A program made the position numbers. From positions 115,699-179,698 of the forward strand of contig JBAZRH010000002.1 in the NCBI GenBank assembly GCA_041663045.1: a stretch of DNA of 64,000 nt, in the 5' to 3' direction. Shown here piece after piece: positions 54,001 to 57,000 of the stretch. The stretch is from Minisyncoccota bacterium. Its GTDB lineage: Bacteria > Patescibacteriota > Minisyncoccia > Phycocordibacterales > GWA1-40-21. The stretch's first letter is position 1; the number at the start of each line of letters is the position of its first letter.

Positions 54001-57000
54001 ACCGACGGCGTATTTCACCGGGGTCCACTCAATTGTTTGTAGTCTAGTGCTAAAAGCCACCCTAGTCAAATAAAAAAACCGCGAGTACTGAATTTCTCGC
54101 GGTTTGTCTGAACTTGCTAGATCCTGCCGGCCAAGATATCCTCACGGATTCTTTCGACTATCTCCTTGTGCACAGGCATAATCACTCTGCGGAACAGTTC
54201 GACTTCACCATCAAACTGTTCCTGCGTCAGAGGGTGATCCTTAATTACGTGATGTAAACTATTTTCTCCCGTTGCAATTATCGAGACAAAAGCCGTTTTA
54301 CCGCAGGGTAATATTACTCGCTTGTTTGTTGGCCTATATCTTAGAGTCAATTCTCCATCCATTTAGACCCCCTTACTATTTTTCGAGTGGTAATACGAGC
54401 ACGCTGTAACAATAACCGCAAACATCATCACCCCCCTGGTTGATGAGTTTATCGTCCTTTTTCAGCTGGCTCCGTGTGAGATTGCATTCCTGGCATATTG
54501 TTTCCGATCTATTCAATGAACTGTCTGGCATAATTTCCTCCCGTGTTTTGTTTCCATAAGAGATGCTAGCAAAAAATAGGCTAGTAAGTCAAATACAAAG
54601 GCGTCCCCCACTAGCGCGCTAGTGGGGGACGCCTTTGTATTTTTTATAATTATGAAATCTTTTCCAATTCCTCTCTCACCACCTCTCTATCATCCCAAGG
54701 GATTCTCTCCCCTTTTATAACCATAGATTGTTCGGCGCCTTTGCCTGTTATGATCACGACATCATTTTCTTTTGCGAGTGAAAGAGCTTTCTTTATTCCT
54801 TCCCTTCTGTCTTCAATCACAAAAAGATTTTTATTTCTAGCTTTGCCGAATTTTTCTGCGACGGTTGCAATACTTTCTAAAATCTCTTTTGGATCATCAT
54901 CATATGGGTCCACATTGCTGACCACCACAAAGTCTGCAAACTTGGCAGAAATTTCTCCCATATCGGCGCGTTTTGTTTTATCCCTTCCACCACCTTCGGC
55001 ACCAAGAAGCACGATTATTTTTCCTGTTGCTCCAGCGATTATTTTTGCCGTTTGCAAAACATTTGTCATACTTTGCTTCTCATGCGCATAGTCCACTATC
55101 ACGGTAAATTTCTGCTTGCCCGATGGTCCCCCGTTTAGGGTTGCAACTTCTATCTTCTCCATTCTTCCCGGGATTACAAAAAGTTTTTTCAGTCCTCTTT
55201 TTATATTTTCATCATTTACTCCCGCGAGCGTTGCAATAACGATTGCCGGTAGCGCATTGTAGACATTAAATTTCCCTGGTATGGATATTTCATATTTTTG
55301 CGTGCCGATTTCAAAAGAAACTCCATCGGCTTTTTCTACAATATTTTTTGCAATCAAGTCAGCTGACTTCTCTATCCCAAAAGTTATTTTTTTATCAGCA
55401 TCAAATTGCAAGAAATCTTTTGCATGTTCGCTGTCTGTATTTGCCAGCATTACTTTTTCGACTGCTTTTCCATCGATATCTTTTCTCGGTAATTTTGAAA
55501 GGATTTTGAATAATTCCAACTTTTTATTTTTATAATTTTCAAAACTTCCGCCATGTGAAGGCAGATGTTCCGGTGAAAGATTCGTAAAAACCGCAATATC
55601 ATAGTTTATACCGATATGCCTAAACTGCTTTATCCCCTCCGAAGTAGTTTCTATCAAACAATATTTGCATCCAGCATTTGCCATCTTTCTTATATAACTT
55701 TGTATGACAAATCTACCAGGCATTGTCATATGATATTTATTCAAAACTTCTTCATCGCCGATGCGAATATTTGCCGTAGTGATAATCCCCGTTTTCAATC
55801 CACCAGCCATAAGTGCAGACCAGATAAAATTGATGGCGGAGGTCTTCCCTTTTGTCCCAGTCACGCCGACAACAATCATTTTCCTTGAAGGAAATCTATA
55901 CAAAATCGCTCCGGAAATCGCCAATAAATAATGATATGCCGGTTGCGCCATTTTAAAAAGCTTGGTTGGTATAAATTTCTTCGCTGTTCTTAATATCTTG
56001 TCCATAGTAAGTATAATATCTCTTTTATTAACTATCTCAAAATCTCATACCCCGCTATCCCAAAAGCGACAGAGACATTCAATGATTCTTTTTTGCCTTG
56101 CATCGGTATTTCGGCTATAACATCGGCGAGTTTGAGTACTTTTTTTGACATACCATTCACCTCCTCTCCCATCACAAGAGCCACGGTTTTTCCAGTTTTG
56201 ACTTTTTTATAATTTACAGAATTTTCCGCCTGCTCCACGGCTACTATCTGATATTTTTCTTTTTTCAATTTCTTCAACAGTTCGGCAGTATCTTTTGCAT
56301 ATTCCCATTCAATATTTCTCTCTGCACCGAGAGCCACTTTTGCCAAATCCTTTCTTTCTCTGCCAAATCTGTCTTTTGGCGTTGGTGTGCATCCACACAA
56401 ATATATCTTATCAACCCCCAGCGCATCAGAGGTACGAAAAATTGAGCCGACATTGTAAACGCTTCTTATATTGTCTAGCACCACCACTTTTTTGTATTTA
56501 ATATCTTTAGCCACACTTAGGATATTACAAGAATTAGCCAAAAAAGCGAGCAGTATTGATAAGAATTTTTGCTAGGGGTGGCAACCTACTCCTTTTGAAA
56601 TGCCTTGGGAGCGCGACGGCGCGAGCACGAGGAATTTTCTAGCAAGAAAATATCCGTGCATTTCAAAAGGAGTAGGTTGGCAGGACCCCGTGAAAATTCT
56701 TATCAATCTCGCTCGCTTTCCAGTCTGTGTTATAATGTCTTCATGATATTAAACACATTCCCCCAAATTTTAACTTTCAGCATACTCGCTCCACTTATTT
56801 TGCGAGTGGTTGTCGGATTCATCGCTATCGATCTCGGCTATCTCAAACTCGGCAAAGAAAAGCTCCAATGGGCAGGGCTTTTTGAAACAATCCATTTTCG
56901 TCCAGCAGAGATATTTATAAAAGGGTTTGCTTTTGTAGAAATCATCGGCGGTCTTATGCTACTTCTCGGCGCATACACACAGATCGTCGCTATTATCTTT

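Follow-up and report, generated by a model that had tools for sequence, protein, structure and literature searches.

A dispersed palindromic repeat family with a conserved asymmetric core, apparently undescribed, in Patescibacteria

Rickettsia palindromic elements (RPEs) are palindromic repeats of 100 to 150 nt that occur between genes and, with unusual frequency, within unrelated housekeeping genes in frame (PMC10969869, citing Ogata et al. 2000 Science 290:347). They are described as dispersed in the reduced genomes of host-dependent bacteria, where they add a peptide segment to the encoded protein, with no associated transposase. REPINs, which are built from REP (repetitive extragenic palindromic) sequences, are nonautonomous hairpin repeats that show compensatory change, are thought to move as folded single-stranded DNA (ssDNA), and persist for a long time (PMC3116915, PMC3337134). 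[quoted passage not shown] Here, we analyzed a 64,000-nt stretch of the genome of a Minisyncoccota bacterium (assembly GCA_041663045.1, contig JBAZRH010000002.1, positions 115,699 to 179,698), called the window below, which carries two copies, A and B, of a palindromic hairpin element. Copy B, upstream of doxX, belongs to a large family of dispersed palindromic repeats that is specific to the Patescibacteria (CPR, the Candidate Phyla Radiation) and apparently undescribed. We consider it reasonably probable (∼60%) that the element is a nonautonomous, probably selfish palindromic DNA like RPEs or REPINs, propagated via a folded single strand.

Copy B, at 56543 to 56719 on the plus strand, is a nested inverted repeat that forms a hairpin of ∼75 bp with a 56-nt asymmetric core at its tip. 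An inverted-repeat search returned outer arms at 56543 to 56569 and 56693 to 56719 (27 nt, 89% complementary) and inner arms at 56579 to 56603 and 56658 to 56682 (25 nt, 96% complementary). The RNA fold of positions 56535 to 56725 has a minimum free energy of −96.8 kcal/mol, compared with −49.7 ± 4.3 kcal/mol in dinucleotide shuffles (z = −11.0; none of 200 shuffles was as good), and the opposite strand folds nearly equally well (−91.0 kcal/mol). The original prediction of a palindromic nested hairpin was therefore correct as to structure, although the span that it gave, 56558 to 56704, falls ∼15 nt short on each side.

The long stem, P1, is capped by a three-helix core. The outer 5′ arm of P1 (56543 to 56569) appears to be native intergenic DNA, homologous to the empty site of a relative discussed below (L122) in an alignment of reconstructions, and spans the expected −35 region of trmH. 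The inner 5′ arm (56570 to 56602) is part of a unit in common with a copy from another genome. It is followed by the junction strand J1/2, CCUUGGGA (56603 to 56610; family consensus N-CUUG-N-GA, with CUUG and GA invariant or nearly so in the family alignment), by P2, a 4-bp hairpin GCGC-GACG-GCGC (56611 to 56622), and by the junction strand J2/3, GAG (56623 to 56625), which lies inside the fixed search pattern and hence is invariant in the family alignment by ascertainment. P3 (56626 to 56658) is a hairpin of 13 bp whose stem carries a GA bulge and an A bulge and whose loop reads AGCA; the apex from 56603 to 56658 contains two small hairpins and as a whole is nonpalindromic. We infer that the last G and A of J1/2 can pair with the G and A 3′ of P2 as tandem sheared G·A. 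The inner 3′ arm of P1 (56659 to 56692) is defined by the inverted repeats, the fold, and the comparison with the copy from the other genome, and the outer 3′ arm (56693 to 56719), which is missing from the empty-site relative, appears to be an inverted duplicate of the native left flank. All these parts are given on the plus strand.

Copy A (26246 to 26434, plus strand; core at 26317 to 26373) lies between an unannotated minus-strand open reading frame (ORF) and yidC. The apexes of the two copies (26333 to 26373 and 56618 to 56658) are 95% identical over 41 nt, and the stems are unrelated; the second small hairpins differ at two positions, one of which is compensated across the stem. Near copy A, repeated words of the GCGAGC type represent CGAG units that pair with themselves, each containing a tandem G·A pair. 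A covariance model, R1, built from 111 aligned family copies, scores copy A at 102.3 bits and copy B at 98.3 bits (E = 3e-28), with the next best score in the window at 16.7 bits; exactly two copies are recognized there. Copy B is thus, as first proposed, a second copy of a conserved-core element, by both the shared core and the covariance model.

To delimit the family, one genome per prokaryotic species was scanned with the pattern GCGAGCACGAGGAA-N6-30-ATCCGTG, which gave at least 120 stretches. Family counts, locus sets, and flank statistics rest on the loci among the matches listed, and several loci share one genome. At least 116 copies in at least 113 loci have the family spacing of 38 to 39 nt. 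All true copies among the matches listed are in records of metagenome-assembled genomes titled as CPR lineages (by record title, Saccharibacteria, Nomurabacteria, Taylorbacteria, Zambryskibacteria, Wildermuthbacteria, Paceibacterota, Minisyncoccia, Parcubacteria, and Patescibacteria group) or as uncultured or unnamed bacterium, whereas the seven matches listed from other phyla have other spacings and no flanking structure. Over 746 kb of CPR loci, R1 recognized 122 copies, ∼22 of them diverged. No Rfam family matched at the gathering threshold or at E values up to 10, apart from generic long-hairpin miRNA models. Phage and plasmid collections contained no match to the element, and the single contig match in a viral collection had the wrong spacing and was not recognized by R1. 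Our literature search, with the core sequence included as a text query, found no description of the element.

The copies share one layout. From 5′ to 3′, a variable P1 5′ arm is followed by N-CUUG-N-GA, P2 (GCNN, a 4- to 5-nt loop, NNGC), GAG, P3 (CAC, GA bulge, GGA-A-UUUUUC, loop AGCA, GAAAAA-U, A bulge, UCC-GUG), and the P1 3′ arm. P1 has a median length of 26 bp and reaches ∼75 bp; whole elements measure 87 to 274 nt, with a median of 117 nt. In the family alignment, 95% of cells hold standard pairs, compared to 74% in shuffles, and double-sided changes number 690, compared to 198 after shuffling; all slid controls collapse. P2 covaries (GC/UA/CG/AU at columns 25:34 and 26:33), as does the distal stem of P3 (UA/CG/AU/GC). 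The basal pairs of P3 are fixed by the search pattern, and such exact-pattern sampling inflates the apparent conservation of the core, but in diverged copies these pairs covary as well (CAC:GUG to UAC:GUA and GGA:UCC to GCA:UGC). The closing pair of P1 (columns 13:74) is almost always purine:pyrimidine (GC in 88 copies, AU in 17). An alternative pairing of CUUG with the 5′ strand of P3, which extends P2, has covariation support in some diverged subfamilies and is contradicted in others.

In P1, then, sequence is free and pairing is kept, and selection preserves the fold of one strand. An A:C mismatch on one strand is a G:U pair on the other, so the two can be told apart by counting: P1 contains 182 G:U and 25 A:C, and a gapless alignment count gives 69 and 17. 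The commonest 2-by-2 internal loop is GA/GA, with 24 cases, compared to about one TC/TC. The G:U and tandem G·A asymmetries indicate that one particular strand is the folded entity, as either RNA or ssDNA.

The genomic contexts of the copies are promiscuous. Flanking genes were assigned with a crude ORF model for 111 copies. Their orientations relative to the element strand include all four combinations (−−, 33; ++, 18; +−, 18; −+, 16), and there is no fixed downstream gene, orientation, or coherent set of neighbors, so that a leader specific to one gene is ruled out. With respect to host genes, copies are oriented nearly at random, with a slight antisense tendency (45:28). The element strand is found on the local C-rich strand in a ratio of 69:42 (p = 0.013), a bias that also shows up as the slight surplus of antisense copies relative to neighboring genes.

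About a fifth of the copies (22 of 111) lie inside long ORFs, in either orientation and always in frame. Hosts confirmed by Pfam are SecA, PheT, Tgt, TsaD, DnaE, Dus, Fmt, MnmA, a UvrD-like helicase, a methylpurine glycosylase, and a methyltransferase; in several of them, the Pfam domain is reported as two stretches. The PheT copies occupy the same site in four genomes, and the TsaD copies, from three genomes, are found in both orientations. Elements have on average 1.53 of 6 frames free of stops, compared to 0.89 of 6 in shuffles (p = 1e-7), although genic copies, in which selection keeps a frame open, are part of this count; five of the six frames of the core are open. Copies that touch both neighbors sit between different genes, e.g., AlaS/Tgt and MreC/Tgt. 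We rejected a split-gene or intron reading because these neighbors are different genes and the genic copies are in frame in both orientations, making removal at the RNA level unneeded and unlikely.

These contexts also bear on termination. An intrinsic or bidirectional terminator, or a REP-type RNA-stabilizing hairpin, would fit a long, stable intergenic hairpin and the many family copies that abut gene ends. However, the element has no U-tract, a terminator scan finds none, copy B is located between two gene starts rather than two ends, a conserved asymmetric core of 56 nt is unnecessary for termination, and the in-ORF copies would terminate essential genes. We regard this reading as extremely improbable.

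If the folded strand were RNA, the element could be a structured RNA with its own activity, either a self-cleaving ribozyme or a protein-binding, k-junction-like module, its stem perhaps an RNase III-type substrate, working for the element or for the cell. The RNA-like covariation, G:U pairs, and tandem G·A pairs of P2 and P3, together with the very strong conservation of the core, would suit such an RNA, and tandem G·A by a junction resembles k-turn/k-junction geometry. The junction also recalls the hammerhead ribozyme, whose core is CUGANGA … GAAA, with an A15.1-U16.1 pair and an unpaired H17 between helices III and I. Like the hammerhead, the element has a three-way junction in which a 7-nt strand with GA at its end leads into helix II, helix II opens with a G-C pair, and GA comes next, an arrangement that permits tandem sheared G·A pairs; strand lengths and several letters are similar (CUUGNGA/GAG versus CUGANGA/GAA). 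However, positions essential to the hammerhead differ: the element has CUUGNGA … GAG, its first helix III pair is C-G and not A-U, and P3 abuts P1 directly, with no unpaired nucleotide at the cleavage site. Core letters, topology, and the lack of an Rfam hammerhead match at E values up to 10 rule out membership, and the resemblance to the hammerhead or the k-junction is a lead, not a class assignment. Two other candidates were discarded: domain V of group II introns, because the 2-nt bulge is on the wrong strand, and a simple k-turn, because the loop is too long, the k-junction being a resemblance only. As for RNA in general, the asymmetry is no proof of it, since hairpins of DNA likewise tolerate G:T and sheared G·A as stable pairs; the family has no conserved promoter and its orientation is near random; and both window copies lie upstream of outward-firing −10 boxes. 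We think an active RNA unlikely, and ssDNA is favored over RNA because element orientation is uncoupled from host transcription and a conserved promoter is lacking.

As predicted, copy B lies between a TrmH-family gene and doxX; Pfam confirms both the SpoU/TrmH methyltransferase (SpoU_methylase; 56032 to 56514, minus strand) and DoxX (56743 to 57153, plus strand, 136 amino acids [aa]). The −10-like TATAAT box at 56731 to 56736, 6 nt before the doxX ATG at 56743, is likewise as described. An ORF at 56605 to 57153 encodes 182 aa, the noted 46-codon upstream extension of the 136-aa doxX, and reads through the element because the element is open in that frame. The corrected start at 56743 is upheld by the DoxX homologues of the closest syntenic loci (L122, L124 to L126, L128, and L129), which align from residue 1, and by an independent call of 136 aa from a contig of identical sequence. 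The trmH start is probably GTG 56514 rather than the listed TTG 56541: alignments of TrmH homologues begin at query residues 4 to 20, the ATG in L122 aligns near GTG 56514, and the 27 nt between the two candidate starts contain what looks like trmH's own −10 box, TAATAT (56527 to 56522, minus strand), 7 nt before the GTG. In L122, TAATAT also stands 7 nt before the trmH ATG, and in the element-free L122 and L129, TACAAT/TATAAT stands 6 to 7 nt before the doxX ATG. The end of copy A is ∼25 nt upstream of a TAGAAT box, itself 6 nt from the yidC GTG at 26472. There is no Shine-Dalgarno sequence at the doxX, trmH, or yidC start, and a consensus scan of the locus found neither a −35/−10 pair nor a terminator.

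Judging from these signals, the doxX and trmH transcripts would be leaderless, starting at or near the start codons and running away from the element; with −10 boxes facing outward 6 to 7 nt from the starts, the doxX transcript likely begins at or near its ATG, downstream of the element. Copy B would then lie upstream of both −10 boxes, in the −35 zone, and probably in neither mRNA, and its local effect would most likely be confined, at most, to promoter spacing or the −35 regions. By contrast, the original prediction implied that the element is part of the doxX 5′ untranslated region, i.e., a cis-regulatory hairpin, with copy A acting likewise for yidC. Both window copies do share the strand of the gene that follows and lie immediately upstream of it, but the −10 box sits between element and start codon and is kept in element-free relatives, the family has promiscuous contexts, with a fifth of its copies inside genes, and no doxX-trmH locus among the TrmH-homologue loci carries the element there. 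A leader function therefore seems very unlikely.

We compared 73 metagenome loci that encode TrmH homologues (295 kb in total). R1 found the element upstream of trmH in none of the 73 and only two copies anywhere in the 295 kb. The order doxX, divergent trmH, murE is kept in closer relatives. In the closest, L122 (DoxX 77%, TrmH 74%, and MurE 71% identical), the doxX-trmH spacer is 72 nt, compared to 201 nt in the window. When pre-insertion reconstructions of the window were aligned to L122, the score was 156.5 if the left outer arm was retained, 130 if the palindrome was deleted entirely, and 126 if the right arm was retained instead. That the left arm gives the best score suggests that it is native and that the right outer arm arose as an inverted duplicate of it. 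Within copy B, the inner 131 nt are 89% identical to positions 970 to 1100 of locus L045, from another genome and an unrelated context, whose outer arms are unrelated to those of copy B and also palindromic. Copy-specific palindromic extensions were present in three of four within-genome groups of related copies.

Long palindromic insertions of other, unrelated kinds are present in the doxX-trmH spacers of L124, L125, L126, and L128. One of them, in L124 and L126, is bounded by the direct repeat ATGAT, which includes the doxX start codon and looks like an ordinary target-site duplication of another element.

The empty sites also speak to a signal kept for the benefit of the host, be it a cruciform or hairpin to which a nucleoid or replication protein binds, a signal for priming or restart, or a promoter insulator. 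The conservation of the core across deep lineages, the modest strand bias with respect to GC skew (69:42), and the location of both window copies between divergent promoters would be expected of such a signal. Its absence upstream of trmH in 73 of 73 loci, with two copies in their 295 kb, would not, nor would the lack of a conserved copy position; in the coding sequences of essential genes, a signal would be pointless and costly; and the structured strand is on the C-rich strand, which we take to be the opposite of what a lagging-strand-template signal would predict. A host-beneficial signal is, in our assessment, quite unlikely.

MnmA offers a second view of the same process. We sorted 120 homologues into four classes by the loop that separates ATGHYA from LLAGxDKNKDQSYFLW: it is empty in roughly half, contains the element in plus orientation (P0001 and P0004), contains it in minus orientation (P0002, P0012, P0014, P0026, P0027, and P0115), or contains other, unrelated inserts. 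In both L030 and L197, the 5′ arm of the element is the reverse complement of native codons of the same gene (Y-L-L-(L)-A), which read TAT-CTT-CTG-C in L030 and, differently, TAT-CTT-TTG-GC in L197. L198 has an empty site and no palindrome, and the filled sites are 87 to 90 nt longer. MnmA thus independently confirms that the stems reach into native sequence. Insertion into a preexisting palindrome is disfavored as the source of the outer arms, though not for every copy, since L122 has one arm only and the MnmA arms overlap native codons. The MnmA copies of L030 (plus) and L195 (minus) have arms identical at 24 of 29 positions on each side and an inverted core, a pattern that we read as in-place inversion of the core via recombination between the arms.

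A second palindromic family, with a different conserved core, AATTGGTCAGGCGAATGGTCTGGCC…GGACCTGAGTCTGAGC, was found in this same loop in the mnmA genes of two further CPR genomes, L199 (160 to 1335) and L200 (301 to 1455). It too is in frame, in opposite orientations in the two loci, with stems that reach native codons.

How could such an element spread? In the model that we favor, a strand of nonautonomous, selfish DNA would fold when ssDNA is exposed in replication, repair, or DNA uptake, and the folded strand would be recognized by a trans-acting enzyme that copies or moves it. Stems would grow through intramolecular template switching, in which a nascent strand folds back at the hairpin and takes adjacent host DNA as template for an inverted copy, and the arms would stay matched through the same copying or through selection. 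The core would invert by recombination between its own arms. Genic copies would persist only in permissive loops and open frames, and hence the same loops would be used recurrently. Copy B would have been inserted between the divergent, probably leaderless promoters of trmH and doxX. A candidate class of mobilizer is the IS200-like Y1/HUH enzymes, which are present in some element-carrying genomes and do not flank the element.

Several observations weigh against this model. Clustering of neighbor ORFs from the at least 113 loci tied no transposase, reverse transcriptase, or recombinase to the element. The only recurrent mobility gene, an IS200-like Y1_Tnp gene, occurs in four loci (L054, L062, L093, and L111; confirmed by Pfam on the L111 representative), always 1.6 to 5 kb from the element and never flanking it; Y1_Tnp is absent from the window, and no integrase is present among the neighbor genes of the copies. 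Copy B is not flanked by a direct target-site duplication, and the empty-site comparison reveals an inverted flank copy instead. Mobility is deduced from dispersed copies and presence/absence rather than from an observed event. L122, the sole close empty-site relative, is ∼25 to 30% diverged, which leaves the case for homology between the outer arm and native DNA good but short of certain, and the opposite orientations in MnmA could be two independent insertions rather than a flip. Selfish DNA does not usually keep a core nearly identical across deep CPR lineages, and this might point to a host function, although our pattern-based sampling favors conserved cores. The bias in orientation, 69:42 on the C-rich strand, is modest. 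Finally, the active form might be RNA, unlikely as we have judged this to be.

One of the Y1_Tnp genes has a setting of its own. In L062, the gene (4494 to 5235) is bracketed by a perfect 38- to 42-nt palindrome, CCAAAAAGGCTAAACCTT/AAGGTTTAGCCTTTTTGG, at 4474 to 4511 and 5216 to 5257, which gives this CPR genome an arrangement like that of REPs and their associated tyrosine transposases (RAYTs); it bears no relation to the element analyzed here.

A bolder interpretation makes the conserved junction itself the active module, a new class of self-processing ribozyme or a strand-specific site of ssDNA recombination or priming, which would drive superphylum-wide structured replicators that build hairpins from host flanks, flip, and remodel surface loops of SecA, DnaE, TsaD, MnmA, and PheT. 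We hold this to be doubtful, if conceivable. Were it true, the similar behavior of the second family in the MnmA loop would point to a general, so far unrecognized force in CPR genome and protein evolution.

The window contains other repeats and hairpins. At 49512 to 49981, a tRNA (49512 to 49583) precedes two identical tandem units of 196 nt, both of which begin with the last 14 nt of the tRNA, and a third copy of their 20-nt start comes next. Each unit also repeats the T-arm of the tRNA in inverted orientation and holds a hairpin, UUUUUUCAGCAGAAAAAA, that resembles distal P3 and another, CGAGCGACGGCGAG, that resembles P2; the array may be a related rearranged repeat or the scar of an integration site. 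Between two minus-strand genes, a 57-nt hairpin at 44603 to 44659 has the apex UUUGCGAG-AAGUAAUCUU-CGAGCAAA, with the same CGAG/CGAG tandem G·A module as P2 and no P3 (R1, 16.6 bits). Long perfect or near-perfect intergenic palindromes with stems of 26 to 31 bp are located at 48129 to 48187, 54591 to 54642, 46757 to 46836, and 1061 to 1237; the first of these, between convergent ORFs and flanked by A/T runs, has the look of a hairpin that terminates transcription in both directions. Long hairpins are unusually abundant in this genome. Beyond doxX, whose 3′ end it overlaps by ∼50 nt, a minus-strand ORF at 57100 to 58485 encodes 461 aa with repeated Ser/Thr-rich segments, an 11-Gly run, and a poly-Pro stretch, and has a faint PKD match in precomputed annotation.

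A Logan contig, L196, is identical to positions 56641 to 60153 of the window and ends exactly in the P3 loop of copy B. We considered this break at 56641 as evidence of flipping and rejected it, assembly breaking at the hairpin being the better explanation; it suggests that such hairpins break CPR short-read assemblies. The element is thus relevant to the quality of metagenome-assembled genomes, as long perfect hairpins break assemblies of this kind.

Few known genomes are as small and compact as those of the CPR, and yet a 90- to 270-nt element is present in them in many copies, also in genes for secretion, replication, and tRNA modification. If the selfish-DNA reading holds, many puzzling CPR-specific protein insertions and overextended ORFs, such as that of doxX, would have a simple cause at the DNA level, and a covariance model could serve to mask them. 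In RPEs, the family would have an analogue, itself being the deep-branching one, and reduced, host-dependent genomes would repeatedly tolerate or attract such elements. The conserved core on a free stem, the strand asymmetry, and the inverted flank copying would point to propagation of a folded single strand outside the known transposases.

Comparison with known systems places the element closest to two of those introduced above. Like an RPE, it is short (median, 117 nt) and dispersed (at least 116 copies, two of them in the window), and it is inserted in frame in unrelated conserved genes, including those for SecA, DnaE, and MnmA. Its hosts belong to a different superphylum, and homology is unlikely given the host phylum and the GC-rich core; we liken the two by behavior. 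As RPEs are described, the element differs from them in that only its asymmetric core is conserved while the stem varies, and in its covariation, its strand asymmetry, and its stems that extend into host sequence. In a REPIN, a short conserved REP occurs twice, in inverted orientation, on either side of a variable spacer, and REPINs are extragenic. The element is similarly hairpin forming with pairing kept, and Y1_Tnp genes exist in element-carrying CPR genomes; however, its architecture is reversed, with a conserved asymmetric center and variable arms, it also occurs inside genes, and no RAYT gene is flanked by it, the Y1_Tnp gene of L062 being flanked by a different perfect palindrome.

With MITEs, the element shares being short, noncoding, repeated, and hairpin forming and having occasional in-frame genic copies. 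MITEs have conserved terminal inverted repeats that match a parent insertion sequence, and direct target-site duplications. In the element, by contrast, the termini are least conserved and the arms copy specific, the loci yielded no parent insertion sequence and no recurrent transposase beside the copies, and the flank duplication is inverted, not direct. The attC sites of integrons and the attP site of CTX phage are hairpins of one folded strand recognized by a recombinase; attC has its conserved boxes at the base of the stem and a variable apex. The element resembles them as a strand-specific folded hairpin in which structure matters over sequence, but it is conserved at the apex and variable at the base and has no integrase or cassette array. 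On these comparisons, the nearest analogues in behavior would be RPEs, with REPINs also close. From both, the element is set apart by its structured conserved center, its stems made of host flanks, the absence of an associated transposase from the loci analyzed, and its spread across a superphylum.

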